A stretch of 64,000 nt of DNA from an uncultured Lentisphaeria bacterium. Its GTDB lineage: Bacteria; Fidelibacterota; UBA8477; JABMPR01. Below are positions 6,374-63,170 of the stretch, in pieces. The stretch covers positions 432,083-496,082 of the forward strand of contig CAYVVT010000001.1 of NCBI GenBank assembly GCA_964454335.1. Reading direction: 5' to 3'. The translations under genes were made by a program, and so were the position numbers. The first letter of the stretch is position 1. Every line of letters starts with the position of its first letter. Below the pieces are notes generated by a model. That model was not told where the DNA came from. It ran no database searches and saw only the letters and a program-made list of their open reading frames with translations.

Positions 6374-6652
6374 ATGCTAGCATCAGCGTATGTGGTGGAA
6401 GTCGCACCGCCTTTGGCGTTGCTTACAGCAGAACGCTCCCTTGCGGAATCGTTCTGCACTGAATGCGTGCTTAACTCGGAACATATGCTAGCATCAGCGT
6501 ATGTGGTGGAAGTCGTAAAATGCCTCTGCTCAGAGGCATTTTACTTACAGAAGAATGCACCCATTTCGGCTGCATTCTTCCCAACAGAAACGAACTGCAA
6601 AGATAACTGGCTTGTTTCGCCGTATATACTAGCCTTGAATTATGTGGTGGAA
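6374..6652 (+). promoter_or_regulatory. Three spaced direct repeats (atgctagcat...tatgtggtggaa) plus a perfect hairpin, upstream of and overlapping the start of the ABC exporter operon.
   Basis: The 31-nt repeat atgctagcatcagcgtatgtggtggaagtcg occurs at 6374 and 6485, and a partial copy lies at 6631-6652 overlapping the ABC gene ATG. The hairpin aaaatgcctctg-ctc-cagaggcatttt is at 6517-6544. Confidence 0.5.
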
Positions 6653-8432
6653 TGAGGATTTTGGGCAGGAGGGTGACAGCTATCGGACTTACTCTTTCCG
6701 GGAGTTGGTCAGGGGTGTCTATCCCTATGTAAAGCCCTACAACCGGATCTTCTTCTTCGCGCTGGGCTGGGCTTTTTTCGGGGTGCTGCTGGTGCTGTTG
6801 CAGCCCCTGATCCTCAAGCACATCATCGACAGCAATATTCCGAATCAGGATTTTCGCGCTCTGACCATCTCTGCGGGGCTCTACCTGGGAACCATGATAT
6901 TGTCGGCCATCTTCGGCTTCTACAGCAACTGGATGGCCCAGAAAGCCGGAACCTATGCGGTGAACGATCTCAAGGTCTCACTCTTTGCTCATGTATTGAA
7001 ACTTGGACTACCCTTCGCGGAGTCCACCGCCGTGGGGAAACTGGTAAGCCGCATCGAGGCGGATCCCCAACGCATCATCGCAGTGACCTCCACCATGGCC
7101 CAACGGCTGCTCATGAGTTTCGGGATGATCATCGGGGCCTTCGTGATCCTGGCCTCGGTGGATGTGCGCTTTCTCATCATCACCCTGGCCGTCTTTCCCG
7201 TCGTCATCATCGGGGCCTGGTGGTCCTTCAGCTATTTCCGGCCCTGGTGGCGCAAGGACCGAGAGAAGTTCTCGGAAATGCTGGGAGTGCTGGCGGAGTT
7301 CGTTCGGGCCGCCGGGATCCTGCAGGTGTTCAACCGCACCGGCTGGGCAATCAACCGGGTCAGGAAAGCAACCCAGGACTTCAACCGCTTCAGCATCAAG
7401 GTGAGCTGGGTGAACTACGGCATCTTCCAGGGTCTGGGCTTCATGGAGGTGGCCGCCACGGTGATCGTCCTCATCTTTGGCGTGAAATGGGTGAATGAAG
7501 GAACGCTGACGGTGGGTGCCCTGGTGCTCTTCGCCCAGTACATCGCCCAGATCTACTGGCCCATCTGGATCTTCACAGAACAGATCGCCCAGCTGCAGTC
7601 CGCCGGAGGAGCGGCCGACCGTATTTTCTCTACCCTGGAATCAGATCCCTATATCGAATCCCCTGATGATCCAAAACCGTTGCCGGATATCATCGAAAGT
7701 ATTCGCTTCCAGAATGTCAGCTTCGGCTATGATGATGAGACCACCGTCATCGAGGATATGAGTTTTGAGATCAAGGGCGGTGACCAGATCGCCTTCGTGG
7801 GACCTACCGGCGGCGGTAAGTCAACGGTGATCAATCTGCTGTGCCGTTTCCGGGATCCGTATGATGGGCGCATCCTGCTGAATGGTATCGACATCCAGGA
7901 TTTTGATGTAGCTGAATACCGCCGACGATTCGGATTGGTGCTCCAGGACCTGTTCCTGTTCCCGGCGCCCATCGAAGAGAATCTCCGGGCATTCAGGGAG
8001 GAGATCCCACAGGCCAAACTGGAGGATGCTGCCCACCTCACGGACATCCATAATGCCATTCTCACCAAAAAAGAAGGCTATCAGATGGTTCTCAAAGAAA
8101 GCGGTGAGGGATTCTCCTACGGCCAGCGGCAGTTGATGGCCTTTGCCCGGGCACTCACGGTTCAACCCCAGATCCTGGTACTGGACGAAGCCACCTCCTC
8201 TGTGGACCCCGGCACAGAATTGCGTATCCAGGCCACCCTCAAGAAGCTCACCGAGAACCGGACCTCCTTCCTGGTGGCGCACCGCCTGAGCACCATCCGT
8301 CGAGCCACACGGATCATGGTCATCGAGGACGGCAGGATCGTGGAATCCGGCAGTCACGAAGAACTGCTTGAGCAGGATGGTGTCTATGCCGACCTGCTGG
8401 CTCATGCCGATCCGGACAGGGAGATGCTCTGA
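6642..8432 (+). CDS. ABC exporter, fused permease-ATPase. This is subunit 1 of a heterodimer and carries a degenerate signature (FSYGQ).
   Basis: Six N-terminal TM segments; Walker A GPTGGGKST; Walker B ILVLDEATS; H-loop present; the ABC signature reads FSYGQRQ instead of LSGGQ. Confidence 0.9.
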   Translation: MWWNEDFGQEGDSYRTYSFRELVRGVYPYVKPYNRIFFFALGWAFFGVLLVLLQPLILKHIIDSNIPNQDFRALTISAGLYLGTMILSAIFGFYSNWMAQKAGTYAVNDLKVSLFAHVLKLGLPFAESTAVGKLVSRIEADPQRIIAVTSTMAQRLLMSFGMIIGAFVILASVDVRFLIITLAVFPVVIIGAWWSFSYFRPWWRKDREKFSEMLGVLAEFVRAAGILQVFNRTGWAINRVRKATQDFNRFSIKVSWVNYGIFQGLGFMEVAATVIVLIFGVKWVNEGTLTVGALVLFAQYIAQIYWPIWIFTEQIAQLQSAGGAADRIFSTLESDPYIESPDDPKPLPDIIESIRFQNVSFGYDDETTVIEDMSFEIKGGDQIAFVGPTGGGKSTVINLLCRFRDPYDGRILLNGIDIQDFDVAEYRRRFGLVLQDLFLFPAPIEENLRAFREEIPQAKLEDAAHLTDIHNAILTKKEGYQMVLKESGEGFSYGQRQLMAFARALTVQPQILVLDEATSSVDPGTELRIQATLKKLTENRTSFLVAHRLSTIRRATRIMVIEDGRIVESGSHEELLEQDGVYADLLAHADPDREML

Positions 8433-10153
8433 TGGCCATCATGACCGCCACCAGACACGTCCTGGGCTGGTTCAGTCCATACTGGCGGAAACGCTGGAAG
8501 GGCATGCTGGGTCTCGTGGGTATCACCGTGGTCAGTATCGCCCTGGGAACGGCCTATCCCGTGATCTTCAAGTTCGTCATCGATTCGCTGGTGGAAGGAC
8601 AGAGCACAACAGACGTCCGATTCTTTGTCTGGCTGATCCTCATCGTAGGTGTGGCCAGAACCATTACCCGCTGGATCCTGCCGTCTTCACGCTATATGAT
8701 GAACCTCCTCATCGGGATGGACATAAAACTCTTTCATTTTGACAATCTGCTTAAAAAGGATCCGGCCTTCTTCGGACGTTACCGTTCCGGGGATCTCATC
8801 ACCCGCTTTTCGGACGATATCGACGGGGAGATCAAGCTGAACTGGTTTGCCGCCTCCGGTGTCATGCGGCCCATCGAGGCAGGTTTCACCCTGCTGTTCT
8901 CCATCGGCGTCATGCTGCTGCTGCACTGGAAGCTTACCCTGCTGGCCATCGCGCCGCTGCCCTTCATCGTGTGGATCATGAGCAAGACCGAGCACATGCA
9001 GCACACAGCCTATACCCGCCGGCAGGAGACCATCTCATTGACGAACAACATCCTGGAAAGCGCTTTCTCCGGGATCCGCATCGTCATCGGTTTCGTCATG
9101 GAGCAGGCCCAGGAGAAGCTGTTCAGAGCCAACATGGAAGAACGCAAAAAGGCCGAGGAACGGGTGATCTTCACCCGCTCCATCCTGGAGAGCGTGGGCA
9201 GTCTCATCAATCAGGTGGGGCTGGTGGTGGTGCTATTCGTGGGCGGCTTCTATGTCATCAATGGCGGCATCACGCTGGGGGATTTCTATGCCTTCATCGC
9301 CTATATGACGGGCATCACCGAACCCATCTGGACCATCTCCTGGTTCTTTGTCTCTCTCAAAATGGCAGAAACCTCTGTTGAACGCCTGGAGGAGATCGAG
9401 CAAAGTGAGAACCGTAAGGAGCGGTCAGGTCATTTTGCTGAGGAACAGAAGAAAATTAAACTCGAGGTGAATGACCTGCATTTCAGATTCCCGGAGGACA
9501 AGAAGTCCGTGATCAACGGTGTGAGCTTCAAGGCAAAAGCTGGGGAGAAGATCGGGATCGTTGGAGAGGTGGGTTCCGGGAAGACGGTCCTGCTCAAACT
9601 GATCTCGGGCTGGTTCTCACCGGATGTGGGCCGGGTGAATGTGAATGGCTATGAACTGGATGCCCTGGATGACGAGGCTCGGGCAGGAACAGTCGGATAT
9701 GTACCCCAGGACATTGAACTCTTCAGCGGGACCGTGGCGGATAACATCACCATGGGTCGCGAGGGTTTTCAGAGTCTGGAATCCGTGAATGAGATCGCCG
9801 TCATCGGTGAGGAGCTGGATCCGGAGAAGAAGCTGGAGCAGGGCGGTGTAGGTCTCAGTGGGGGACAACGCGCTCGAGTTGCGCTGGCGCGGGCGTTTTT
9901 CGGTGATACGCCGGTGTATATTTTCGATGATGTGACCTCGGCGCTGGATCTCAATACGGAGAAGATCCTGTGGCGGAACATCAACAGCTCTTACGTTAAT
10001 GCTCTGTTCCTGGTCGCCACACATCGGGAGGCAACAGCAGCCGAGATGGATCGGATCGTGTGGATCCGGGATGGGGAGATCTTTTGTGAGGGTGTGCATG
10101 AGGAGCTCCTGGCGGAGCAGCCGGGGTATCGGTCACTGTTTGCCCACGAGTAG
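8432..10153 (+). CDS. ABC exporter, fused permease-ATPase. This is subunit 2 of the heterodimer; its Walker B has DD in place of DE.
   Basis: Walker A GEVGSGKT; signature LSGGQRARV; Walker B VYIFDDVTSALD with the catalytic Glu replaced by Asp. The start overlaps the stop of the upstream gene (TGATG). Confidence 0.9.
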   Translation: MAIMTATRHVLGWFSPYWRKRWKGMLGLVGITVVSIALGTAYPVIFKFVIDSLVEGQSTTDVRFFVWLILIVGVARTITRWILPSSRYMMNLLIGMDIKLFHFDNLLKKDPAFFGRYRSGDLITRFSDDIDGEIKLNWFAASGVMRPIEAGFTLLFSIGVMLLLHWKLTLLAIAPLPFIVWIMSKTEHMQHTAYTRRQETISLTNNILESAFSGIRIVIGFVMEQAQEKLFRANMEERKKAEERVIFTRSILESVGSLINQVGLVVVLFVGGFYVINGGITLGDFYAFIAYMTGITEPIWTISWFFVSLKMAETSVERLEEIEQSENRKERSGHFAEEQKKIKLEVNDLHFRFPEDKKSVINGVSFKAKAGEKIGIVGEVGSGKTVLLKLISGWFSPDVGRVNVNGYELDALDDEARAGTVGYVPQDIELFSGTVADNITMGREGFQSLESVNEIAVIGEELDPEKKLEQGGVGLSGGQRARVALARAFFGDTPVYIFDDVTSALDLNTEKILWRNINSSYVNALFLVATHREATAAEMDRIVWIRDGEIFCEGVHEELLAEQPGYRSLFAHE

Positions 10154-10177
10154 GTTCAAACCTCCCAACGCACAAAT

Positions 10178-10590
10178 ATCCAGTTTCAAATTTCAAACGT
10201 CGGGTTGACGAACGTGGAGTGGTCGGCAATCCATACACGTCAGTAAAACCACGACCCGTCTCATCCCTTCTTTTTGAGGGATCAAAAAGAAGCACCCGCC
10301 TTCGCTTGCAGCTCCGGCGTGGCACGAAAAATCCTCCATTTCAGTTTTACCAGGGAAGCATCTGGGGCTGTTAATCAGCTTTGTTGCGGCAGAATTGAAA
10401 CTCGCTCGTTTCACTCCCTCAGACAACAATTCTGCTGCTTGCTCCCTTCGCTGATACAGCCATCCATCTGCTTCCCAAGGAGGTATTCGATGTTGAGTGC
10501 CAGGGCGCTAAGACGAGTGTAGCCCTCAGTCATTGCGAGGAGGGCAGAACTCACGGTTGGAGTTCTGAATGACGTGGCAATCTCCTCAGC
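10178..10590. repeat. Structured intergenic repeat unit, copy R1.
   Basis: It shares the head motif (cagtttcaaatttcaaac), the hairpin cttctttttg...caaaaagaag, the core ...cagggaagcatctggggctgttaatcagc...gcggcagaattgaaactcgctcg...cagacaacaattctgctgc...cttcccaag and the tail ...gttgagtgccagggcgctaag...cagtcattgcgag with the other copies. Confidence 0.8.
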
Positions 10591-10778
10591 AAACCTCGCG
10601 TATGTTGGTTAGTCCAGAAACCCGTCAAACCACCGGACAAGCATCGTTAATTCACCCTCGTTTGCTCATCAGTAGCTGTAATGCTAACTTATAGGCGTTC
10701 CCACTGGAGCTTCCTGCTGTAACCATTCTCACTCATTCTCAAAGCTGTACGATGACAAAGCATTGCAGGGGGATTGAT

Positions 10779-11819
10779 ATGTTCGATCTATCGAGACGCA
10801 AGTTCATCAAGTCCGGCTTCTATGCCGTCATGGGTAGTATGCTGTCGGTTTTCAGTTCGACGGGCTGCAGTATGCTGGGGAAGGGGAGGAAAGACTTCGT
10901 ACCCGGTTACCTGGAATTGCACAGCAGCGGGGAGCTAAAGAAGCGGGGCGATATGCTCTGGGAGATGATGGAGACCTGTGAGCTGTGTCCGCGACTCTGC
11001 GGGGTGAACAAGCTCAAGGGCGAAAAGGGATTCTGTGAGGCCAACGATAAACTGGAGATCACGGCCCATCATCCCCACTTTGGGGAAGAGCGGCCGTTGG
11101 TGGGTGTCGGTGGCAGCGGGACGATCTTCCTGACGAACTGCGGTCTACGCTGCGTCTTCTGCATCAACTGGGAGATCAGCCAGGGTGGTGTCGGCATGAA
11201 GGAGAGCCTCGAGAGATGCGCCGATATGATGCTGGAACTCCAGGACCGGGGTTGTCCCAACATCAATTTCGTCACACCCACGCACTATTCAGCGCATATC
11301 GTCAAGGCCGTGGATATTGCTGCGAGCAAAGGGCTGAATGTTCCGCTGGTTTGGAATACCTGTGGCTGGGAACGGGTGGTGATCCTGCAGATCCTGGACG
11401 GGATCGTCGATATCTATCTGCCGGATTTCAAGTATTCCGATAACGAGAGTGCCATCAAGTATTCATCCGGATCGGCAAGCTATGTCGAAGATACACAGCA
11501 GGCGCTGCTGGAGATGAACCGCCAGGTGGGAGTTGCCAAACCTGGACTCTTTGGGTTGATGCAGAGGGGTCTGATGATCCGGCATCTGGTAATGCCCAAC
11601 GATGTCAGCGGGACCAAGGGCGTCATCGACTGGATCGCGGAAAATCTGCCCAAGGATACCTATTTCAATCTGATGTCCCAGTACCGGCCCATGTACAAGG
11701 CGGCTGAGTATCCCAAGATCTCCCGGAGGCTTACCCGGGAGGAGTATGCCGAGGCGGTTAGATGGGTTAAGGAGGCCGGGTTGACGAATGTGGATATCCA
11801 GGGGATGAGTTTCTTCTAG
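10779..11819 (+). CDS. Radical SAM enzyme (AmmeMemoRadiSam / PFL-activase-like) with an N-terminal twin-arginine lipoprotein-like signal.
   Basis: CELCPRLCGVNKLKGEKGFC followed by NCGLRCVFCINWEISQ (CxxxCxxC); N-terminus MFDLSRRKFIKSGFYAVMGSMLSVFSSTGCS. Confidence 0.8.
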   Translation: MFDLSRRKFIKSGFYAVMGSMLSVFSSTGCSMLGKGRKDFVPGYLELHSSGELKKRGDMLWEMMETCELCPRLCGVNKLKGEKGFCEANDKLEITAHHPHFGEERPLVGVGGSGTIFLTNCGLRCVFCINWEISQGGVGMKESLERCADMMLELQDRGCPNINFVTPTHYSAHIVKAVDIAASKGLNVPLVWNTCGWERVVILQILDGIVDIYLPDFKYSDNESAIKYSSGSASYVEDTQQALLEMNRQVGVAKPGLFGLMQRGLMIRHLVMPNDVSGTKGVIDWIAENLPKDTYFNLMSQYRPMYKAAEYPKISRRLTREEYAEAVRWVKEAGLTNVDIQGMSFF

Positions 11820-11844
11820 AGTACCGATTTTACCAAGAACACAA

Positions 11845-12294
11845 TTTTCCAATTTCAAGTTTCAAACTTTGGATTGACCAACTGGATGTGGTTGGTAATC
11901 CATATTCGATGGTTCGCTGAGGAATTGGGATCCTTCTTCTTTTTGACGCGCCAAAAAGAAACAAAAAGCGTTTTTTTCTCACCTAACCAGGGAAGCATCT
12001 GGGGCTGTTATGCAGCTTAGTCGCGGCAGAATTGAAACTCGCTCGTTTCACTCCCTCAGACAACAATTCTGCTGCTCGCTCCCTTCGCTGATACAGCCAT
12101 CCATCTACTTCCCATGCGGGTATTCGATGTTGAGTGCCAGGGCGCTAAGGTGAGTGTAGCCCTCAGTCATTGCGAGCGCAGCGTGGCAATCTCGCCAGCG
12201 GACGACTTTGACACTTTGCGTTACGAGCAATGATCATCTGCCCAGGTCTGATCTCCAATTAACTCCAGCTCAACACAGTTCGATCAAATCCCGG
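11845..12294. repeat. Structured intergenic repeat unit, copy R2 (a full unit of about 450 bp, in tandem with R3).
   Basis: Over 85% identical to R1, R3 and R5 across head, hairpins, core and tail. Confidence 0.85.
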
Positions 12295-12295
12295 G

Positions 12296-12645
12296 ATTTC
12301 AAATTTCCAGTTTCTAGTTTCGAACTTTGGTTTGACTAACGTGGTATGCTTTGCAGCCCATATTCGATGGTTCGCTGAGGGATTGGGTTCCTTCTTCTTT
12401 TTGACGCGCCAAAAAGAAGCAAAAAGCGCTTTTTCTCACCTAACCAGGGAAGCATCTGGGGCTGTTAATCAGCTTAGTCGCGGCAGAATTGAAACTCGCT
12501 CGTTTCACTCCCTCAGACAACAATTCTGCTGCTCGCTCCCTTCGCTGATACAGCCATCCATCTGCTTCCCAAGCAGGCATTCGTTGTTGAGTGCCAGGGC
12601 ACTAAGACGAGTGTATCTCTCGGTCATTGTAATGCGGCCATAAAT
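12296..12645. repeat. Structured intergenic repeat unit, copy R3 (tandem, with a truncated tail).
   Basis: Near-identical to the R2 core; directly abuts R2. Confidence 0.85.
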
Positions 12646-12923
12646 GCCAGCGGCATATATGGCCAACGAAGCAACCCTCTCCGAATAGAGCTGTTCTATG
12701 GCAATGTTTTAAAAGATCCGACCCGGGAACTGCCATACTTAATGATCGGCCCCTACGCGAACACATCGATCAGACCAAACAAATTTCAATTTCACACATC
12801 CTCATTCTGGAATCCCCTCCCGCCTGCTGCAGGATCCAATCTTCTCCTAAAATCACGTTTTTCCCCAGCCCCCATGCTCTAACTTATTCTAAAGTATTCA
12901 ACTCATTGGTATCGGGGGATAGT

Positions 12924-15900
12924 GTGAAAAAATCCAGACGGTCATTTCCGGTTTCAACGATTTCATTGTCGGCAATTTCAGTGATTTTCCTGCTGGCATT
13001 CGTGACTGCAGGTCATGCGCAGCGTGTGACAGACGTGGAAGCTCTGCAAGCATTCAGTCAGGAGAAGCAGTTGGAATGGCAGGCGGCGCGAGCTGAGATC
13101 GAAGAGTACGCTCGGGCGAACAACATCCCTATCCAACAGATCCTTTTGGACGGCACTACCCTGGAGATCCAACGCCTGGTGAACGGGATCCCCATTTTCT
13201 ATATCACACATAACGCCAATGCGGCCATAACTACCCGTACAGACGAACTCTATCCCGGTGGGGATGCCGGTCTCAGTCTCAGCGGATCCGGATATGACAA
13301 GCTTGGTATCTGGGATGCGGATCAGGTGCGTTCCACACACGATGAGATGACTGGCCGGGTGACCTATGGTGACAGTGAGACCACACTGCATTATCACGCC
13401 ACCCATTGCGCCGGGACCCTCATCGCCAGTGGATCCACCGCCAGCGCCAAGGGTATGGCCTATGCTGCCGATCTCACCTCCTACGACTGGAGTTCGGACA
13501 TCTCGGAGATGTCATCCGCTGCCGCCAATGATCTGGAACTTTCAAATCACTCCTACGGCAGCAGCTCCGGTTGGGTAGGAAGTACCGCCTGGTACGGTGA
13601 TACCGGCGTGGACCAGGACGAATGCTATTACTTCGGCTTCTATAATCAGGATGCCCGGGACTATGATCATATCGCGTACCTGGCACCCTATTACCTTATT
13701 GTGAAATCCGCCGGCAACGACCGCAACGATGACGCTCCCAGCGAAGGAACAGCACACAGCCATAACGGTAGCGGTACCTATACCGACACCCATAACGACG
13801 ACGGACATGACAGCGGGTACGACACGATGCCCTTCGAGGCTGTGGCCAAGAATATTCTCACTGTGGGTGCTGTCTATGATGTCGCCAACTATACCCAGGC
13901 TTCCGATGTGACCATGTCGTCCTTCAGCAACTGGGGCCCGGCCGACGATGGCCGTATCAAGCCGGACCTGGTGGCCAACGGTATCAGCGTTTACTCCTGC
14001 CTGGAAACCGCCAACGATGCCTATGGATCTCTTTCCGGTACTTCCCAGGCCTCACCAAATGCCTGCGGAACTCTGGTCCTGCTGCAGCAGCATTATCAGA
14101 ATACCCATAGCACCAATGTGATGCGTTCAGCCACGCTGAAAGCCCTGGCGATCCACACTGCCGATGAAGCCGGGTCCAATACAGGGCCTGATTATGCCTT
14201 TGGCTGGGGATTGCTGAATGCCGAAGCGGCAGCCGACATCATCAGTGATGACGAGAATTATGGTTCCATTGCAGAATTGAACCTCTCCAGCGGCGAAAGC
14301 TATTCCCGGACCGTTACTGCCACAGGCAGCGATCCACTGAGAGTAACCGTGGTGTGGACCGATCCGCCGGGAACACCGGTATCGGCCTCACTGGATCCCA
14401 CGACGGCCATGCTGGTAAATGACCTGGACCTGCGGATCACCAAAGACGCCAGCACCTACTATCCCTGGAAGCTGGACAGGAGCAATCCAGCCAATGCCGC
14501 CACCAACAGCGCCGAGAATGACATCGATAACGTGGAGCAGGTCTATATTGCCAGTCCATCGAACGCAAGCTACACCATAGTGGTGGATCATGACGGCAGC
14601 CTTACGGGAGATTCACAGGATTTCTCCATCATAGTTTCCGGGCATTCATCCTCTTCCAGCGCCCCTGGTTGCTCTGACGGTCTTATCGGAATCAGTGACG
14701 GTGCTACCGATGTAGCAGTACAAACCGTCCTCCAATGGGAAGAGGTTGAAAGCGCCACGAGCTACGACCTCTATTTCGGTACGGACAATCCGCCCACCAG
14801 CGTGGTGAATGGTAGCAACCAGACCACGACTTCCTACAGCCCCTCACTGGCGTTGAATACGACCTATTACATCAAGATACTTCCAAAGAACACGCACGGG
14901 ACTGCCAGCGGGTGTGCGGTGTGGTCCTTCTCCGTGGGCTCAAAGATCCTGGAGGAGGATTTCGACGACTTCCTGGTGATCGGTACCGATAACAACTGGA
15001 CCAATGGCTCAGGTGACGATTTCGACTGGTCGGTGAATGTGGGCAGCACACCTTCAGGCAGTACAGGACCTTCCGGTGACCACAGCACAGGCTCCGATAC
15101 CTACCTTTTCACCGAATCCTCCGATCCCAACTATCCAGATAAGACCGCCTATCTGCTGAGTCCCAGCTTTGATCTGAGCAGCTCATCCAATCCCACCCTG
15201 GAGTTCTGGTATCACATGTACGGTTCCACCATGGGGGAACTCTATGTCGATGTCTATGCCAACAGCAGCTGGAACAACGCTGTCTGGAGCCTGACGGGCG
15301 ATCAGGGCAATTCCTGGTCTGTGGCGGTGGTGGATCTATCGGCATACAAAGCCTACTCCGATCAGCAGCTTCGGTTTCGGGCAGTGACGGACGGTTTCCG
15401 CAGTGACATGGCCGTCGATGATGTCACCGTCCGCAGTGAGGCATTCTACACCTTTACCGGCGGCAGCACATCGGCGCACACCTTCCCGAACACCGGGGCG
15501 ATCCTGCAGTTCACCTCCGCCAACAGCGGCGATGTCAACATCACGGCCATCAAGAACAATTCTGATCCCGGTGTGAACGGCTCCCTGCCCGAAGGGGTCG
15601 TAAACAGTTCGAGTGAACGTTACTGGGACCTGATCCTCAATTCCGGAAGCGCGGACGGTATTTATGCACTTACTCTGGACCTGGATGGCATGATGGGGAT
15701 CAGTGACTATTCCACCCTGAAGCTGCTCAAACGTGCCAACAGCAGCGGTGCCTGGGCAGTGGCCGGTACCAATGCCTATGCTGGATCCGGAACCTCTGTG
15801 AAATGGACGGGGATCAGCAGTGGTTTCTCCCAATTCGGCATCGGTGGGGCCAGCGATAACAGCCTGCCGGTGGTCCTGACGTCCTTCGCAGCGGAAGCAG

Positions 15901-16475
15901 TGCAGGGAGCGATCATATTGAGCTGGGTCACCGGCAGCGAGATCGAGAACCTGGGCTTCATTCTCGAACGTCGCGAATATCCTGAAGGTGCCTGGATCGA
16001 GATTGCGCATTATCAGGATCAACCGGAGTTGCGAGGGCAGGGGAGTAGCACGGCAGGGTACGCCTATTCCTTCCGTGATGCCGCGATCGTTCCAGGAAAG
16101 AGATACGACTACCGTCTAGCGGCCGTGGATTATCAGGGTAGCAGGGAGTATCAAGGGATGATTGTCACTGGTGTGACCCTGAACGCTGTCCTGCCTACGG
16201 ACTACACCCTGAAACAGAATTACCCGAATCCATTCAATCCCAGTACAGCCATCACATATGACCTGCCGGAAGATGTCAGGATAAGGATTCAGATCTTCGA
16301 TATGAACGGCCGTGAAATTGTCCTGCTTGTCGAAGGCCGGCAACCTGCAGGCTCCTATGATCTGCTCTGGAATGGCCAGGATCATTGGGGAGAATCGGTA
16401 GCACCAGGTGTCTACTTCTGCCACCTCCAAGCCGGTGATTTCTCGCAGACGATCAAGATGGTAGTGCTGAAATAG
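12924..16475 (+). CDS. Subtilisin-like serine protease (peptidase S8) with a MAM domain and a T9SS C-terminal sorting domain.
   Basis: HATHCAGT (His motif) and GTSQASPNACG (Ser motif); MAM-like block ...DDFDWSVNVGS...YLFTESS...LEFWYHMYGSTMGELYVDV; C-terminus NYPNPFNPSTAITYDL...VVLK; signal peptide after the GTG start. Confidence 0.9.
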   Translation: MKKSRRSFPVSTISLSAISVIFLLAFVTAGHAQRVTDVEALQAFSQEKQLEWQAARAEIEEYARANNIPIQQILLDGTTLEIQRLVNGIPIFYITHNANAAITTRTDELYPGGDAGLSLSGSGYDKLGIWDADQVRSTHDEMTGRVTYGDSETTLHYHATHCAGTLIASGSTASAKGMAYAADLTSYDWSSDISEMSSAAANDLELSNHSYGSSSGWVGSTAWYGDTGVDQDECYYFGFYNQDARDYDHIAYLAPYYLIVKSAGNDRNDDAPSEGTAHSHNGSGTYTDTHNDDGHDSGYDTMPFEAVAKNILTVGAVYDVANYTQASDVTMSSFSNWGPADDGRIKPDLVANGISVYSCLETANDAYGSLSGTSQASPNACGTLVLLQQHYQNTHSTNVMRSATLKALAIHTADEAGSNTGPDYAFGWGLLNAEAAADIISDDENYGSIAELNLSSGESYSRTVTATGSDPLRVTVVWTDPPGTPVSASLDPTTAMLVNDLDLRITKDASTYYPWKLDRSNPANAATNSAENDIDNVEQVYIASPSNASYTIVVDHDGSLTGDSQDFSIIVSGHSSSSSAPGCSDGLIGISDGATDVAVQTVLQWEEVESATSYDLYFGTDNPPTSVVNGSNQTTTSYSPSLALNTTYYIKILPKNTHGTASGCAVWSFSVGSKILEEDFDDFLVIGTDNNWTNGSGDDFDWSVNVGSTPSGSTGPSGDHSTGSDTYLFTESSDPNYPDKTAYLLSPSFDLSSSSNPTLEFWYHMYGSTMGELYVDVYANSSWNNAVWSLTGDQGNSWSVAVVDLSAYKAYSDQQLRFRAVTDGFRSDMAVDDVTVRSEAFYTFTGGSTSAHTFPNTGAILQFTSANSGDVNITAIKNNSDPGVNGSLPEGVVNSSSERYWDLILNSGSADGIYALTLDLDGMMGISDYSTLKLLKRANSSGAWAVAGTNAYAGSGTSVKWTGISSGFSQFGIGGASDNSLPVVLTSFAAEAVQGAIILSWVTGSEIENLGFILERREYPEGAWIEIAHYQDQPELRGQGSSTAGYAYSFRDAAIVPGKRYDYRLAAVDYQGSREYQGMIVTGVTLNAVLPTDYTLKQNYPNPFNPSTAITYDLPEDVRIRIQIFDMNGREIVLLVEGRQPAGSYDLLWNGQDHWGESVAPGVYFCHLQAGDFSQTIKMVVLK

Positions 16476-16631
16476 AGTGGAAGTACGCCAGCAAGTAAGC
16501 CAGGTTTATGTTGATCTTTAAATGATACAGAGCCAGGAATTCACATCCAGATCACCTGCGATTTGAATTCTGCTAGATAATCCCTTATCTTCCAGTTCGT
16601 TACGTTGGATTTGAGCTTCGGCAGGGTATTG

Positions 16632-17072
16632 ATGTATAACGGGCTTGGTCACCAGTCTCCCCCCGCTTCCCGGCGCTTCTCGCCGGCCTTTTCCCTCGTG
16701 GAATTGATGATCGTCATCGTGATCATGGGCATTCTCGCGGCTATCGCTATTCCCGTTTACTATGACAATGTCGACCGGGCCATTCTGGCCGAATCCGATG
16801 CAGCTATGGGTTCCATACGTAATTATCTCGTGGTCTACTATGGGACGAACGGTATGTATTCCATTCAGCTATTCGATGCCTATGTCATTGGGAAGAGCTG
16901 GAACGAGATCAAACCCGGTGAACTCAACGGGCAGTTCTTCCGGGACTCGTCCTTCTACTATTACTGCTGGGATGGGATCAATTATTTCCTCATCGCTCAG
17001 AAAGGTCAGCCGAATCCTCTCTGGCGGACGCTGGATCAGAATGGGGATTTCGAGAGTTGGCCCAACCTGTGA
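16632..17072 (+). CDS. Prepilin-type N-terminal cleavage/methylation domain protein (type IV pilin or T2SS pseudopilin-like), paralog 1.
   Basis: AFSLVELMIVIVIMGILAAIAIPVY is a class III signal and pilin helix. Confidence 0.65.
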   Translation: MYNGLGHQSPPASRRFSPAFSLVELMIVIVIMGILAAIAIPVYYDNVDRAILAESDAAMGSIRNYLVVYYGTNGMYSIQLFDAYVIGKSWNEIKPGELNGQFFRDSSFYYYCWDGINYFLIAQKGQPNPLWRTLDQNGDFESWPNL

Positions 17073-26042: not shown

Positions 26043-26474
26043 ATGGACTCAGCTTTTGGTAAGAACCATTCTACGCAATCTGCCTTTTCCCTGGTAGAGC
26101 TGATGATCGTCATCGTGATCATTGGTCTTCTGGCGGCTATCGCGGTACCTGTGTATAACAAGAATGTGGAACACGCCATTCGGGCTGAGGGGGAGGCCGC
26201 ACTGGGATCGATCCGCACGCAGGTACTGGTGTATTATGGTGAACACGGTCACTTTCCAGTGGAAGATCTGTCACGGGTGGTAACCCAGAGCTGGCACAGC
26301 ATCAAAGAGGGCGAACTAGATGGACGCTACTTCTCAGAATCGTCCTATTACTACCAGTGTTTTGACGGTGTCGACTATCTCATCGGTCTGCATCGTGGAG
26401 AAGTCATGGAACTGCACCGCTCGCTGAACCAGGATGGCCAATACGAGAACTGGGACCTTAGTGTGGATGAGTAG
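26043..26474 (+). CDS. Prepilin-type N-terminal cleavage/methylation domain protein, paralog 2.
   Basis: QSAFSLVELMIVIVIIGLLAAIAVPVY; roughly 45% identical to the 16632..17072 product. Confidence 0.65.
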   Translation: MDSAFGKNHSTQSAFSLVELMIVIVIIGLLAAIAVPVYNKNVEHAIRAEGEAALGSIRTQVLVYYGEHGHFPVEDLSRVVTQSWHSIKEGELDGRYFSESSYYYQCFDGVDYLIGLHRGEVMELHRSLNQDGQYENWDLSVDE

Positions 26475-29253: not shown

Positions 29254-30126
29254 ATGCGCAGGGGTATGATCAGGACGGTTGGCGTAGAGGAAAATGTTCC
29301 CAGCAGACACCTGTGGGGGATCTTGGGGACTCTCCTGTTGTCCGCTGCCAGCCTGACGGCCCAAGATTACGAGGTGGGGGGTTTTCTCAGCTCCGAGACC
29401 TTGAATGCCCCCATGACCATCTGTGCCAACGGCAGCGGCGAGACCACGATCAACGAATTGCTCAGCAGTACGGATGAGTACCCAAGGGCCGTCTGGATCG
29501 CCTTTTTCGCCTCCTGGTGAGGAAGCTGTCGGAACGAGATCGTCGATCTCGAGGAATACCACCAGAATATGTATGACCAGGGGCTGCGGATCATCAGTCT
29601 GGGCAGAACCTGGAATCAGCCCTACAGCTGCAGCGGCTGGGCCGATCTGGGTGCCACGTACCCTCTGGTAGACGATGAATTGACCCAATACTGGGATGAT
29701 TTCGGGCTGGGGATCGTACCCACCAATGTCATCATTGACGTCGATGGCCAGGTCCGTTTCAACTCTATCGGCTTCAACGAAAATCTCATTGCACCCATCC
29801 TGGAAGAATTGCTGGGGCCGGTGGACACTGCAGAGATCCCGACTCCAGAAACATTCATTCTGATCAGTAACTATCCCAATCCCTTTAATGCGGGGACAAA
29901 GATAGAATTCTCATTGGAAGAAGCCCGGGACATCAGGCTGGTGGTGAGGAATATCAGCGGTCAAGAGGTTGCCATGCTGCATGAAGGTTATCTCCCAGCG
30001 GGAAACCAGACCTTCAGCTGGGATGGATACGGTGATAATACTGCCGTGCTGTCAAGTGGGATCTATCTCCTTCAACTGCGCGCTGGCCCTCAGGTGCATT
30101 CTCACAAACTGTTGTTGAATAAATAG
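29254..30126 (+). CDS. Thioredoxin-fold (TlpA/redoxin-like) selenoprotein with a UxxC active site and a T9SS C-terminal sorting domain; the in-frame TGA lies at 29518-29520.
   Basis: ORFs 29188..29520 and 29569..30126 share one frame and are separated only by TGA. Read through, the join gives ...AVWIAFFASW-U-GSCRNEIVDLEEY..., the WCxxC redoxin motif with Sec at the first Cys. A hairpin lies 15 nt downstream. The C-terminus is NYPNPFNAGTKIEF...LLLNK. Confidence 0.7.
29521..29555 (+). promoter_or_regulatory. Candidate bacterial SECIS hairpin immediately 3' of the UGA codon.
   Basis: cgagatc-gtc-gatctcg (a 7-bp stem with a 3-nt G/U-containing loop) begins 15 nt after TGA. Confidence 0.45.
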
Positions 30127-56006: not shown

Positions 56007-57239
56007 CTACCTGTCCAGGAAGGCCTCGAGCTCATTCAGGTCCGGCGGCAGGGTCTGCAGCTCCGGGAGAGCTGCTTGTGCGTGGGGGATGTCTTTCAAA
56101 CCGGAGCCTGTGATAAGCAGCACCAGCTTTTCCTCAGATTCAAGCCGCCCTTCGCTTTGCAGCCGGAGAAGTCCGGCCATGACGGAAACTGCTGCCGGTT
56201 CAGCAAAAAGGCCGAATTCAGCTGCCAGGATCTGCTGTGCTGCCAGGATCTCCTCATCAGTTACGGTGATGCCGAAACCACCGCTCTGCCGAATGCTCAT
56301 GCGGGCTTTCTCCCCATCCCGGGGGAGATCGACTGAAATGCTGTCTGCAATGGTATTGGACGATACGGACCGGATGGGATCGTCATGATCCAGGCTGTTC
56401 ACAATGGCGGCCGATCCTTCAGCCTGTACGGCCACCAGCTGTGGAATGCTTTCGATCCAACCAAGCTTGAACAGGTCCTCAAATCCACGGTACAGCCCGC
56501 TGATGATGCAGCCGTCACCCACCGGCACCAGGACCCGGTCAGGAACCTCCCAATCCAACTGTTCGGCGATCTCCAGTGCTGCCGTTTTCTTGCCTTCGGC
56601 CAGGATGGGATTGATACCGGTATTGCGGCAGTAGTAGCCCCGTCGTTCGGCGAGATCGCGAGCCAGGTCGAAGGCAGTATCATAGTTGGCTTCAATGGGC
56701 AGCAAGCTCGCACCATGTTGTCGGATCTGTACCAGCTTGGCCGGTGGTGCATCAGCTGGAATACAAAGAATGGCACGTTTGCCATGATAGGCAGACAGAC
56801 AGGCCAGGGATGCTCCGGCGTTGCCAGTAGAGGCCGCGATGATGGTATCCAGGCCCATCTCATCCGCATGCTGAATACCCAGGGCCGAGGCCCGGTCCTT
56901 CAAAGAAAGACTGGGCAGTCGTGTATCATCCTTGATCCACAACTCTCTCATACCATATCTGACAGCTGCATCGGGAAATGGTATAAGCGGGGTGTTGCCC
57001 ACGGTGAGGCCTCTGCGCTCAGGTCTCTGATTCACTGGCAACAAGGGTAGGTAGCGCCAGATGGATCTATCGGTTTCGGTCTGCAGATCGGCTTTTGTCC
57101 AACGGTCCCGGATATGATCGTAATCAAATACGAAGGTCAGATTGTGTCCGCACTCCTGACAGACATAGGAGTAGGGGTCCACGCCCAGTTCACTGTGACA
57201 GTGGATGCATTCCAGCTTGAGGATGGCTTCCCGGTCCAT
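56007..57239 (-). CDS. Threonine synthase-like fold-type II PLP enzyme with an N-terminal zinc ribbon.
   Basis: CIHCHSEL...CQECGHNL zinc ribbon; a SLKDRAS PLP-lysine region. Confidence 0.6.
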   Translation of the reverse strand: MDREAILKLECIHCHSELGVDPYSYVCQECGHNLTFVFDYDHIRDRWTKADLQTETDRSIWRYLPLLPVNQRPERRGLTVGNTPLIPFPDAAVRYGMRELWIKDDTRLPSLSLKDRASALGIQHADEMGLDTIIAASTGNAGASLACLSAYHGKRAILCIPADAPPAKLVQIRQHGASLLPIEANYDTAFDLARDLAERRGYYCRNTGINPILAEGKKTAALEIAEQLDWEVPDRVLVPVGDGCIISGLYRGFEDLFKLGWIESIPQLVAVQAEGSAAIVNSLDHDDPIRSVSSNTIADSISVDLPRDGEKARMSIRQSGGFGITVTDEEILAAQQILAAEFGLFAEPAAVSVMAGLLRLQSEGRLESEEKLVLLITGSGLKDIPHAQAALPELQTLPPDLNELEAFLDR

Positions 57240-58714
57240 TACTCGTATTGCTTGCGCAATCCAGTCCGTTCGTTGAATGCACGGATGCGTTCATCCCAGA
57301 TGTCTTTCTGGGCATAGCGCTGTGACCAGTAGTTCCTGTCGTACCATTGGGCATCCAGCTCCTCGGCGGTTTTCCCCTGCTGCTCCACCCAGGTGAAGTA
57401 TTTCAGGTTATGCATTCGTTTCCGGTCGTAGTAGGAAAGCTCCAGGACACCTTCAGTGGAATTACCCAGCAAACGGCGTTCAAAATCCACCTGGGCCTGC
57501 ACGGGGGAGTAATCTCCTTCTGCCTCTCGGGCTTCTTCCAGTCGCGAACCGTACATTTCCATGGAATCGGTTGCCACCGTGAAAACGATATCGTTGGAAT
57601 CGAATTCATAGTAGCGGGCCATCTTGATAGCCCCGAGGATATTGGCGATACTGGAGATACCCAGGAGGTCCAGCCTATCCACCAGTTCACCACTGATACC
57701 GGTGGATCTCAGGAATTCCTTACCACTGGGTTCGTTGAATAATCGAATAAGGTTCATGGGCAGGTCATCATCGATCCCGATGACCATATCCATATTGCGC
57801 AGGTTGTGGATCCAGGGCACATGTTTGTCACCGATACCCTCGATACGATGGCCGCCATAGCCGTTGTATAGCAGTGTCGGCACCTGCAGGGCCTCCCCAG
57901 CGGCGATCTTAATGGATGGGAAGTGCTCCCGGAGGTAATCGCCGCAGCCCAGTGTGCCGGCCGATCCCTGGGTGAGGAACAATCCACTGAACCGGCTTTC
58001 GGCAGAGCCCTGCTGGTTGTAGACCTCCTGCATGGCTGGCCCGGTTACAGCATAATGCCACAGTGAGTTACCGATCTCTTCAAACTGGTTCAGCACGACG
58101 ATCTGGTCGCCACGCTCTTTCAACAGTTCATGGACCTTATCATAGATCTCTTTGACGTTGGCTTCACCTCCCGGTGTCCTGATCACCTCGGCCTCTACCT
58201 CGTCCAGCCATTCAAAACGTTCTTTTGACATTTCCTCGGGGAGTACCGCGATTGCCGGGCAATCCAGGAGCCGACTGTTATAGGCACCTCCGCGGCAATA
58301 GTTACCGGTGGAGGGCCACAGAGCCTTCTGACGTGTTGGATCGAAGTGGCCGTTCACCAGCTTCTCCACCAGGGGACCGAAGGTCGCCCCTACCTTGTGC
58401 GCACCGGTTGGGAAGAATTTCCCCAACAGAACGATGATGCGCGCTTCGACACCGCTGAGCTCACTCGGCAGTTCCAGGAAGTTGACCCCTCCATAGCCAC
58501 CGCCATGTGACACCGGTTCGTTCTTCCAGGTTATGCGGAAAAGGTTCCGGGGATTGATATCCCAGAGACCAATATCCTTCAGCTCAGCTTTGATACCTGC
58601 CGGGACCAGCTCCGGATTGGCCATCTCCTCATAGGTGGGAATGATGATATTCCTCTCGCGGCAGCGCTGGATGGTATTCTCAAGGATCGTTTCGCTTGTG
58701 TGCATGCTGTTCAT
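57239..58714 (-). CDS. Fold-type II PLP-dependent enzyme (TrpB/CysK-like), 491 aa, specificity unknown.
   Basis: FPTGAHKVGATFGP matches the TrpB-like PLP-lysine motif xTGxHK, and TQGSAGTLGCG is a glycine-rich PLP phosphate loop. Confidence 0.55.
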   Translation of the reverse strand: MNSMHTSETILENTIQRCRERNIIIPTYEEMANPELVPAGIKAELKDIGLWDINPRNLFRITWKNEPVSHGGGYGGVNFLELPSELSGVEARIIVLLGKFFPTGAHKVGATFGPLVEKLVNGHFDPTRQKALWPSTGNYCRGGAYNSRLLDCPAIAVLPEEMSKERFEWLDEVEAEVIRTPGGEANVKEIYDKVHELLKERGDQIVVLNQFEEIGNSLWHYAVTGPAMQEVYNQQGSAESRFSGLFLTQGSAGTLGCGDYLREHFPSIKIAAGEALQVPTLLYNGYGGHRIEGIGDKHVPWIHNLRNMDMVIGIDDDLPMNLIRLFNEPSGKEFLRSTGISGELVDRLDLLGISSIANILGAIKMARYYEFDSNDIVFTVATDSMEMYGSRLEEAREAEGDYSPVQAQVDFERRLLGNSTEGVLELSYYDRKRMHNLKYFTWVEQQGKTAEELDAQWYDRNYWSQRYAQKDIWDERIRAFNERTGLRKQYE

Positions 58715-58717
58715 CCC

Positions 58718-59896
58718 CTATACCAGGCCGCTGAGATCGAAGACATCTGTCAGGGGCCGGTTTTGATGATCGAAAGCTGTCAGGTACATCATGGCAGCGA
58801 TGACAAATGGTTTGTAGCTGGCTTCCAGATAGGTATCACGCCGGTACTTCTCGAACACATCCTTACTCACCTCCCCATGCTCGCAGCTGACGTCGGTGAT
58901 ATCAGCGGGCAGACAATGCATGTAGAGGGCTTCACCATCTTTTGTCAGCTTCATCTTCTCTGCGTCACACTCCCAGTCCGTGAAGCGGGCGTTGTTGGCC
59001 AGGCACTCCTGTTCGAGACGCTGGAGCCCCGGCTTATCGGCAGCATTCAACAAGGCCGTACGTTCCTCCATGACATGGAAGGGTGCCCAGGACTTGGGAT
59101 ATACGATATCCGCGCCACTGAAGGCCGCTTCCATACTGTTCACGATCTCAAAGGAACCTCCGCCGGATGCTGCCTGCTCTTTCGCACGACCCTGGACTTC
59201 GGGGATCAGGCCATAACCTTCGGGATATGCCAGAGTGATGTCCATACCAAAACGGGTGAGCAAACCGATGATGCCCTGCGGCACGGAAAGGGGCTTCCCA
59301 TAACTGGGTGAATAAGCCCAGGTCATGGCCAGTTTTTTCCCCTGCAGGGTTTCCAGACTACCAAAATGCTTGATGAGCCAGGCCAGGTCTGCCATGCTCT
59401 GAGTGGGATGATCGATGTCGCACTGCAGGTTGATCAGGCCGGGTCGCTGGTGCAGCACGCCTTCTTCATATCCGGCCTGTACGGCTTCAGAAACCTCAAC
59501 CATGTAGCTGTGGCCTTCTCCCAGATACATGTCGTCCCGGATACCAATGATCCGAGCCAGGAATGAGATCATATTGGCGGTTTCCCGGACAGTCTCTCCG
59601 TGGGAAACCTGTGATTTTTCCTCGTCCAGATCTGAGACAGCCAGCCCCATGGCATTCGCAGCAGACGCGAAGCTGAATCTCGTACGCGTTGACTTATCCC
59701 GAAAAAGGGATACCGCCAGACCGTCGTGAAAAACCTGCATTGGTTTTCCCCTTGCATGCAGGCTCCGCAGGAATTCTGCCAGATGCAGAGTTGCTTTTAA
59801 TTCATCATCGGTCTTGTCCCAGGTGAGCAAAAAATCCGCCCCATATCCTCTGATATCCTGGTTATCAAATTCGGCAGCAAGTTCGTTCAGGTTCAT
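58718..59896 (-). CDS. ygeW: YgeW-like carbamoyltransferase (oxamate carbamoyltransferase-like).
   Basis: STRTR carbamoyl-phosphate binding motif; 392 aa, which fits the YgeW subfamily size rather than the 310-330 aa of OTC/ATC. Confidence 0.75.
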   Translation of the reverse strand: MNLNELAAEFDNQDIRGYGADFLLTWDKTDDELKATLHLAEFLRSLHARGKPMQVFHDGLAVSLFRDKSTRTRFSFASAANAMGLAVSDLDEEKSQVSHGETVRETANMISFLARIIGIRDDMYLGEGHSYMVEVSEAVQAGYEEGVLHQRPGLINLQCDIDHPTQSMADLAWLIKHFGSLETLQGKKLAMTWAYSPSYGKPLSVPQGIIGLLTRFGMDITLAYPEGYGLIPEVQGRAKEQAASGGGSFEIVNSMEAAFSGADIVYPKSWAPFHVMEERTALLNAADKPGLQRLEQECLANNARFTDWECDAEKMKLTKDGEALYMHCLPADITDVSCEHGEVSKDVFEKYRRDTYLEASYKPFVIAAMMYLTAFDHQNRPLTDVFDLSGLV

Positions 59897-59917
59897 AGTA
59901 TTGATATTATCCCCATT

Positions 59918-60868: not shown

Positions 60869-60887
60869 TATATAATCCTCCAATTGT

Positions 60888-61841: not shown

Positions 61842-61870
61842 AGATCCTCCTTCAAATATTTAAATCTTTA

Positions 61871-63166: not shown

Positions 63167-63170
63167 TGGT

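Follow-up and report, generated by a model that had tools for sequence, protein, structure and literature searches.

A thioredoxin-fold gene interrupted by an in-frame UGA is probably an intact gene for an exported selenoprotein of a divergent Marinimicrobia bacterium

Introduction

Does an in-frame TGA in the middle of a thioredoxin-fold gene mark a broken gene, or does it encode selenocysteine (Sec)? We addressed this question for a gene at positions 29254 to 30126 of a 64-kb stretch of contig CAYVVT010000001.1, which, taken as the whole stretch of DNA analyzed, we refer to as the window. A preliminary description of this DNA had joined two same-frame open reading frames (ORFs), parted only by TGA, into a single gene for a thioredoxin-fold selenoprotein secreted by the type IX secretion system (T9SS). 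Our analysis leads us to read the locus as an intact gene for an exported TlpA/ResA-like selenoenzyme of a divergent Marinimicrobia host, with a probability of roughly 0.8. We consider it very likely that the TGA encodes Sec and that we are dealing with a true selenoprotein gene that is intact. The family to which it belongs is already known from the sea, and the gene adds a new and somewhat divergent member to it; the find is of use for correcting annotations and as a pointer to extracellular Sec-based thiol chemistry in Marinimicrobia, and involves no new principle.

Gene structure and the UGA codon

Translated in one frame, the gene contains a sole internal stop among its 290 codons, the TGA at 29518-29520, across which it reads ...AVWIAFFASW(TGA)GSCRNEIVDLEEY... 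(Table 1). Gene callers split it into an ORF of 88-101 residues (P0121/P0272) and one of 185 residues (P0001, 29569-30126). The second ORF had been held unable to stand as a gene of its own, and this was borne out by its start, which falls 17 residues past the redox motif and within the thioredoxin fold. No second frame disruption occurs across the 873 nt, and family conservation extends on both sides of the TGA; the signs of decay that the preliminary description had named as grounds for giving up a selenoprotein, further disruptions or a loss of conservation downstream of the TGA, were thus not seen. Assembly error was rejected as the origin of the TGA because four further assemblies from different samples (five assemblies in all) carry the gene, with its TGA, at 100% identity. 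An alternative genetic code was likewise rejected: TGA is the commonest stop in the window, where it closes 17 of the 39 open frames of at least 250 codons, which indicates that the organism uses the standard code. When the window was scanned for TGA-interrupted frames, 46 candidates were returned, 45 of which lie, by position, antisense to or bordering known genes. With an apparent stop serving as the Sec codon, the database entries of this gene and of dozens of its relatives are split or truncated, and the selenium dependence and the redox domain of the family are consequently invisible to database users.

Table 1. Features of the predicted selenoprotein gene and of the selenium-linked gene island in the window.
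Feature	Position (nt)	Strand	Details
Predicted selenoprotein gene, complete	29254-30126	+	290 codons including UGA read as Sec (codon 89); terminal stop TAG
Putative Sec-type signal peptide, residues 1-36	29254-29361	+	MRRGMIRTVGVEENVPSRHLWGILGTLLLSAASLTA, followed by QD; read from sequence; possible starts ATG 29254, ATG 29266 and an upstream GTG
TlpA/ResA-like thioredoxin-fold domain ("Prx-like" UxxC class)	29362-29826	+	PF00578, PF08534, PDB profile search
Family-invariant Cys, C-A-N motif, residue 57	29422-29424	+	Alignment columns C21 / C41
UGA read as Sec, residue 89, first position of W-U-G-S-C	29518-29520	+	Homologs carry TGA or a Cys codon
Redox motif U-G-S-C	29518-29529	+	Resolving Cys at 29527-29529
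Candidate bacterial selenocysteine insertion sequence (SECIS)	29535-29551	+	Perfect 7-bp stem CGAGAUC/GAUCUCG, triloop GUC; 21 nt from UGA to loop
Glu at Cys+3	29536-29538	+	Aligns with the Glu of the ResA CEPCKKE motif
Family-invariant Cys, P-Y-S-C-x-x-W motif, residue 126	29629-29631	+	Alignment column C90
Invariant Pro, residue 156, cis-proline position of the thioredoxin fold	29719-29721	+	Column P120; aligns with the ResA Pro
T9SS type A C-terminal sorting domain, residues 207-290	29872-30123	+	NYPNPFN...LLLNK; TIGR04183; linker at 29827-29871
Selenium-linked purine-catabolism island	45906-64000, continuing in L098:1-10000	-	ygfK/ssnA/ygeW/carbamate kinase/xdhABC

Relatives were recovered by an exhaustive HMMER search that used the 102 residues following the TGA as query and returned about 200 proteins. 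Word-indexed protein searches gave, for the whole read-through product, matches that nearly all covered the T9SS tail only and, for the thioredoxin domain alone, a single distant relative. By phmmer, the post-UGA domain of the window protein matched the marine clade with E-values of about 1e-13 to 1e-11 (2.4e-13 for P0135, 1.5e-12 for P0139 and 1.4e-11 for P0144). The relatives fall into full-length WCxxC proteins of 270-290 residues (P0123, P0125, P0127, P0156, P0184 and P0193) and many ORFs that begin directly past the motif, a pattern to be expected where a Sec codon cuts gene calls short. A separate group of matches, comprising P0126, P0129 and about 60 long proteins matched over multiple stretches, consists of Listeria-Bacteroides repeat (Flg_new) proteins; these were rejected as repeat-driven false positives (query residues ~7-55, ...PYSCSGW...), which could contaminate automated building of the family.

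The codon at the Sec position was then read from DNA. A pattern scan of metagenome contigs found 205 relatives, for which 80 loci were fetched, making 83 with the loci collected earlier; the codon is TGA in 79 of them and TGT in three, and it is lost at a contig end in one. TGA occupies the identical codon in L005 (FFASW(TGA)TVCQSE), in L006 (IFATW(TGA)GGCQTE) and in the closest relative, L101 (FFESW(TGA)GNCRAEVPHLE); in L101 the TGA is accompanied by a hairpin and by a T9SS tail. TGA is found in all three of the nearest Sec-position relatives beyond the GTDB set (L101, L005 and L008), so that TGA is probably ancestral in the lineage of the window gene rather than a fresh nonsense mutation. 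A scan of species-representative genomes, which used a tighter alignment and did not include the window's own genome among its matches, found Cys forms only. Nine relatives are known at genome level, six of them from metagenome-assembled genomes (MAGs) named Candidatus Neomarinimicrobiota, Fidelibacterota or FCB group; in all eight in which the motif was read the codon is TGT or TGC, and the architecture of signal peptide, thioredoxin domain and T9SS tail is as in the window gene. The homolog alignment that the preliminary description had proposed as a check therefore places either TGA or a Cys codon opposite the window TGA, in agreement with a CxxC motif whose first residue is Sec. Thirteen columns of the alignment are invariant, namely those of C-x-N, W-U/C-x-x-C, a Gly, P-Y-x-C-x-x-W, the cis-Pro and a further Gly. 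They flank the TGA on both sides, and the window protein retains all 13.

Some public gene calls render the UGA as Trp, apparently by use of an alternative code, and so yield full-length proteins with a spurious W-W-x-x-C. A Trp at the Sec position of three database proteins (P0135, P0139 and P0144) is what one would point to in proposing that the UGA is decoded as something other than Sec, either by near-cognate read-through (as Trp, Cys or Arg) or after reassignment of UGA. The Trp of P0135 proved on DNA to be a gene-calling artefact, since locus L006 carries TGA and does not yield P0135 when translated with table 11. P0139 shares its peptide context with loci L052 and L074, which carry TGA; P0135 is the only one of the three whose artefact was confirmed on DNA. 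Decoding as another amino acid is also opposed by the use of TGA as terminator of long ORFs in the window, by the position itself, which is that of the catalytic Cys of CxxC and would be functional only as Cys or Sec, and by the covarying stem-loop described below, a hallmark of SelB-dependent decoding. We regard this explanation as highly improbable. In a separate database entry, NCBI MFQ6605675.1 from a Fidelibacterota MAG, a truncated member of the Sec-form cluster is labeled merely "T9SS type A sorting domain-containing protein".

The downstream RNA hairpin

The 7-bp hairpin that had been reported 15 nt past the UGA is present as described, its first base being the 15th nucleotide past the UGA, and the hairpin alone has a folding energy of -8.5 kcal/mol. 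A perfect hairpin of at least 7 bp in the right range follows only 1.7% of the TGA triplets across the window, and when the peptide is recoded synonymously one arises in only 2.3% of cases, more rarely than chance would readily explain.

The family as a whole supplies stronger evidence for an RNA element at this place. In an ungapped alignment of 46 distinct Sec-form sequences and the window gene, anchored on the UGA, the family stem-loop has 4 bp in its lower stem and 7 bp in its upper stem; the apical loop is GGC or GGU and, as GGC, starts 17 nt past the UGA. The stem varies by compensatory changes (UCGGA/UCCGA, GCGGA/UCCGC, CAGGA/UCCUG, GUGGA/UCCAC and UCUGA/UCAGA), with synonymous third positions of a Pro codon covarying with a non-synonymous upstream position. 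Double changes occur in eight of the 11 stem pairs; 83.9% of the cells in the stem are paired, a share that falls to 35-45% if the 3' partner is shifted by 1-3 columns, and none of 500 shuffles reached the observed covariation score. Cys forms lack the hairpin at that place. Among them is L038, which keeps the QTEAP peptide without a hairpin, and this argues that the stem-loop is no by-product of the protein sequence. Taken together, the pairing of TGA with Cys codons and a covarying stem-loop that has no counterpart in Cys forms point to a real selenoprotein gene.

Bacterial SECIS elements are expected to have a small apical loop containing G (PMC1088965). Both the family elements and the window hairpin have such a loop, and both lie directly 3' of the UGA. 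The window element also resembles the Escherichia coli fdhF-type SECIS and the bSECISearch consensus in being a stem-loop within the coding sequence. It differs from the fdhF type in being very short (7 bp and a triloop) and in having no bulged U. In fdhF, the G-U of the loop is contacted by SelB.

Fold and redox center

With the TGA read as Cys, the read-through product scores 36.0 bits against PF00578 (AhpC-TSA), where the cut-off is 26, and 32.6 bits against PF08534 (Redoxin), where it is 26.6. Its scores against the NCBIfam equivalog models of ResA, DsbE and TlpA are far under their cut-offs, which makes it a member of the superfamily and not an orthologue of these proteins. A profile of the family searched against the PDB matched ResA (4nmu) with E = 5.7e-16, as well as the C-terminal domain of DipZ, DsbE/CcmG and TlpA, and the profile alignment brings WCxxC, the Glu at Cys+3 and the cis-Pro into register with ResA 4nmu. 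The fold was examined in P0123, the nearest full-length Cys homolog, whose AlphaFold (AF2) model (predicted local distance difference test score 81.6) shows an N-terminal helix at residues 4-17, a thioredoxin fold and, beyond a disordered linker, a beta-sandwich at the C-terminus. This model superimposes on ResA with a TM score of 0.82 and a root-mean-square deviation of 2.5 A; Chlorobium DsbE and Mycobacterium tuberculosis DsbF match too. With the redox motif supplying the invariant columns W52, C/U53 and C56, the residue predicted as Sec sits at the N-terminal, nucleophilic Cys position. The other two invariant cysteines, Cys57 and Cys126, probably form a structural disulfide. Peroxiredoxin chemistry was rejected on the grounds that the motif is W-U-x-x-C and not T-x-x-U/C.

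The window protein thus shares with ResA, TlpA, DsbE (CcmG) and the C-terminal domain of DipZ the fold, a redox motif at the N-terminus of helix 1 after a Trp, the Glu three residues past the second Cys, the cis-Pro loop and, as its domains would suggest, an extracytoplasmic location. It differs from them in having Sec for the nucleophilic Cys and two extra invariant Cys residues (in C-x-N and P-Y-x-C), and in being predicted to carry, where they have a membrane anchor, a cleavable leader and a T9SS tail; moreover, a gene context of cytochrome-c maturation or DsbD/CcdA is absent from the window.

Export and the T9SS tail

A putative signal peptide at the N-terminus of the window protein is plausible. 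By eye, its leader has a long n-region with acidic residues and an h-region, LWGILGTLLLSAASLTA, followed by an A-x-A-like site and QD; the homologs have N-terminal hydrophobic leaders as well. The other end of the protein had been assigned to a T9SS C-terminal sorting domain, and this assignment held: the domain opens with NYPNPFNAGTKIEF and scores 36.8 bits against TIGR04183, for which the cut-off is 23. It also scores 33.7 bits against PF13860 (FlgD_ig; cut-off 27).

Such tails are not peculiar to the window gene. By a simple motif count, among the 56 distinct Sec-form ORFs that are complete, at least 34 close with a PNPFN-type tail, and in other family members TSP3- or dockerin-like calcium-binding modules precede the T9SS tail, so that extracellular targeting appears to be a trait of the family. 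T9SS tails are found too on the adjacent GH57 protein and S8 protease of the window, and the proteins close by that end in such a C-terminal domain (CTD) are a GH57 protein, an S8 protease and an amidase, the last in L098. The neighboring CTD-tailed proteins imply that a T9SS would exist in this genome. On these sequence features, the window protein is very probably exported and is probably T9SS cargo, a conclusion in which we have good though not full confidence. In the locus of the Sec-form homolog P0124 (L005:1951-2726), the gene directly upstream encodes 183 residues, ends in a T9SS/FlgD-like tail and abuts the start of the selenoprotein gene; as with GH57 in the window, T9SS cargo genes may cluster around members of the family.

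Weighing of the evidence

Several observations weigh against an intact gene for an exported selenoprotein. The window hairpin lies 4 nt further 3' than the family element and its stem sequence is unrelated, and the C-Q-x-E-A-P that follows the motif in the family is replaced by C-R-N-E-I-V. The window element matches neither its own family's SECIS model nor a curated one: a family covariance model (R1) built without the window sequence returned only noise on the window (E > 1), with nothing at 29518 or any other candidate Sec site, and the Rfam SECIS models gave no match to the window at gathering or permissive thresholds. The 63-nt stretch has an ordinary minimum free energy (z = 0.75 versus shuffles), and 54% of recodings fold as well. 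No selA, selB, selD or tRNA-Sec was found in the window or in the 485 kb of collected loci (tblastn with E. coli SelA, SelB and SelD; ARAGORN). The five assemblies, being identical, are uninformative on selection acting on the window copy. As for export, PF18962 (Por_Secre_tail) scores 24.8 bits, marginally under its cut-off of 27; no T9SS machinery gene (porU/V, sprA, gldKLMN) was seen in the 64-kb window; and we know of no reductant for a thioredoxin-fold enzyme beyond the outer membrane.

The first group of these observations bears on whether the window copy is a recent pseudogene, in which a Cys codon or former Sec codon is now a plain stop, the family SECIS has been lost and the 7-bp hairpin is coincidental. 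Such an origin would fit a hairpin unlike the family element, with a chance of about 2%, and the loss of the conserved QxEAP peptide. The genome-level relatives of the same subclade are all Cys forms, from which TGT to TGA is one substitution, and no gene of the Sec machinery was found in the 485 kb covered. A pseudogene is hard to square, however, with 873 nt free of a second disruption, with 13 of 13 invariant residues kept on both sides of the TGA and with the TGA of L101, L005 and L008, which is probably ancestral. A perfect hairpin whose loop begins with G, standing in the correct range despite the change in peptide, is moreover the opposite of decay. We consider a pseudogene quite unlikely and instead read the window hairpin as a case of SECIS turnover, in which the structure was maintained and the sequence replaced; it is the weakest link in the argument for this copy. 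On that reading, the gene is a small natural experiment in SECIS turnover, with a hairpin rebuilt in a new register as the peptide changed.

The second group concerns only the destination of the protein. A real selenoprotein need not be T9SS cargo if the Ig-like/FlgD-like beta-sandwich has a structural role or serves in binding and the enzyme stays in the periplasm, reduced by a DsbD/CcdA-type pathway. FlgD_ig scoring above its own threshold while PF18962 falls under its gathering score would suit a periplasmic enzyme, as would the lack of a T9SS machinery gene in the window; this location would also resolve the missing reductant, and DipZ likewise couples a TlpA-like domain to a beta-sandwich domain. 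Against this stand a TIGR04183 score well over the cut-off, a tail with the canonical PNPFN start and K-terminal end, as in hundreds of T9SS-tailed proteins, secreted hydrolases next door that share the tail, and the extracellular dockerin/TSP3-like modules that precede it in other family members. We find a periplasmic enzyme unlikely, though worth bearing in mind, and retain T9SS export as the preferred reading.

If the gene is an intact one for a T9SS-exported selenoprotein, its expression can be pictured as follows. The mRNA hairpin would recruit SelB with Sec-tRNASec, and Sec would be inserted at the UGA. The product, with its W-U-G-S-C motif, Glu at Cys+3, cis-Pro and probable Cys57-Cys126 disulfide, would be exported by means of its signal peptide through the Sec translocon, and the C-terminal sorting domain would then direct it through the T9SS to the cell surface or the medium. 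Outside the cell it could act as a disulfide reductase or isomerase based on selenol/thiol chemistry, in which Sec would be the stronger nucleophile and would resist irreversible over-oxidation in an oxidising compartment. The T9SS-tailed hydrolases next to it (GH57 and S8 protease) hint, speculatively, at a role in extracellular polymer processing. Extracellular use of Sec would suggest that Sec is favored where over-oxidation is likely, and a Sec-based thiol oxidoreductase outside the outer membrane raises the question of what re-reduces the enzyme.

Relation to known selenoprotein families

Knowledge of UxxC selenoproteins of "Prx-like" and "Trx-like" types in genomes and marine metagenomes dates back to 2004-2008, and extracytoplasmic ones (DsbA-like, DsbG-like and thiol:disulfide interchange proteins) have long been predicted. 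The window gene belongs to the same protein family as "Prx-like 1" and "Prx-like 3" of the Global Ocean Sampling (GOS)/Sargasso data (Zhang et al., 2005, PMC1088965; Zhang and Gladyshev, 2008, PMC2398784). The family's signature peptides, with U, are found under these two names in GOS supplement file 3, for example ...FISSFASWUKPCQSEAQTIEE...NQPYSCEEWAEKF... and ...WINLFTSWUPSCQVEAPQTE.... The window protein agrees with the GOS proteins in its AhpC-TSA/Redoxin-like character, its thioredoxin-type UxxC and all invariant columns (C-x-N ... W-U-x-x-C ... P-Y-x-C-x-x-W), and the marine relatives recovered independently here are the same. It differs from them in its place in a divergent subclade, "LGRxW", with ~36-46% identity across the domain, in having R-N-E-I-V for Q-x-E-A-P and in its repositioned hairpin. 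This places the family among the selenoproteins catalogued before, and the selenoprotein itself is not new, so that the preliminary description, which had called the surface destination unusual for Sec enzymes, overstated the novelty of the find.

Two other named families were considered and rejected. NCBIfam NF041054 ("ResA-like WAxxUGC motif-containing protein"), a curated selenoprotein family, resembles the window protein in its ResA-like fold and in Sec within the redox motif, but its motif is UGC, versus UxxC in the window protein, and the protein length differs; the window protein gives a weak local match over residues 79-167, with 23.3 bits against a cut-off of 300. The GOS family "UGSC-containing protein" was rejected because the homologs show a generic UxxC motif.

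No mention of a T9SS sorting tail or of an origin in Marinimicrobia was found in the searchable text and supplements of the 2008 GOS work (PMC2398784). In the literature searched, type IX secretion, Marinimicrobia and SAR406 occurred together with selenocysteine or selenoprotein only incidentally, and a 2026 review leaves secretion and the periplasm unmentioned. Within this literature, the T9SS tail of the family and its assignment to a phylum appear to be undescribed. The present analysis assigns an abundant UxxC selenoprotein family of the sea to Marinimicrobia/Fidelibacterota and finds extracellular targeting modules in most of its members. A broader view, that the widespread Sec-containing TlpA-like enzymes of Marinimicrobia/SAR406 are the first recognized class of T9SS-cargo selenoproteins, displayed at or released from the cell surface and acting beyond the known thiol-reducing pathways, is one we put forward tentatively, at somewhat less than even odds.

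Host and selenium context

The best named matches of the window acetate kinase are proteins of Candidatus Marinimicrobia/Neomarinimicrobiota MAGs, to which it is 61-64% identical. The host would accordingly be of Marinimicrobia type, a divergent bacterium of this phylum (Fidelibacterota, FCB group), as far as its sequence indicates.

The preliminary description had also noted a selenium-associated molybdenum hydroxylase island, and this is indeed present: the ygfK/ssnA/ygeW/xdhABC genes occupy ~45.9-64 kb of the window, roughly its right third, and the island extends past the right edge to the yqeB/yqeC signature. Within the window it comprises two XdhA/XdhB/XdhC-like sets, YgfK (901 bits, above cut-off), SsnA, YgeW and carbamate kinase, together with an aspartate/ornithine carbamoyltransferase, two pyridoxal-phosphate enzymes and an 8-oxoguanine-deaminase-like amidohydrolase. 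Beyond the edge follow adenine deaminase, YqeC, a MobA-like gene, a gene for a 267-residue protein of unknown function and an XdhC/CoxI (YqeB-like) gene; no selD was found within 10 kb past that edge. The longest ORF of ygfK (51428-54931, minus strand, 1167 residues) overlaps the upstream XdhB-like gene (54687-55529, minus strand) by ~245 nt, and this overlap, together with a public product of 1083 residues, points to an internal ATG as the probable true start of YgfK.

Published work takes the yqeB/yqeC pair as the signature of the Se-cofactor trait, for which SelD is required (PMC5029168). The yqeB/yqeC/ygfK island of this genome would thus imply that SelD is encoded in it. Three SAR406 single-cell genomes were listed in 2016 as "orphan SelD", with no Sec, selenouridine or Se-cofactor trait recognized (PMC5029168, Table 1). 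The Sec-form family in Marinimicrobia suggests that at least some lineages of the phylum decode Sec and, with the yqeB/yqeC island, that the "orphan SelD" genomes are incomplete rather than carriers of a new selenium trait. If the class of Sec-containing T9SS cargo proposed above is real, these SAR406 genomes would in fact decode Sec.

Other features of the window

Two small pilin/pseudopilin-like proteins with a prokaryotic N-terminal methylation motif are encoded at 16605-17072 and 26043-26474 (both plus strand). One of the two genes lies directly upstream of the T9SS-tailed GH57 gene, which in turn precedes the selenoprotein gene. Further upstream, positions 6642-16475 (plus strand) hold a tandem pair of genes for ABC exporters (6642-10153), a gene for a radical SAM protein (10752-11819), 1.1 kb without a long ORF (11819-12906) and a gene for an S8 subtilase of 1189 residues (12906-16475) with a MAM domain and a T9SS/FlgD-like tail. 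This region might be a peptide-maturation cluster resembling those for ribosomally synthesized and post-translationally modified peptides (RiPP-like).

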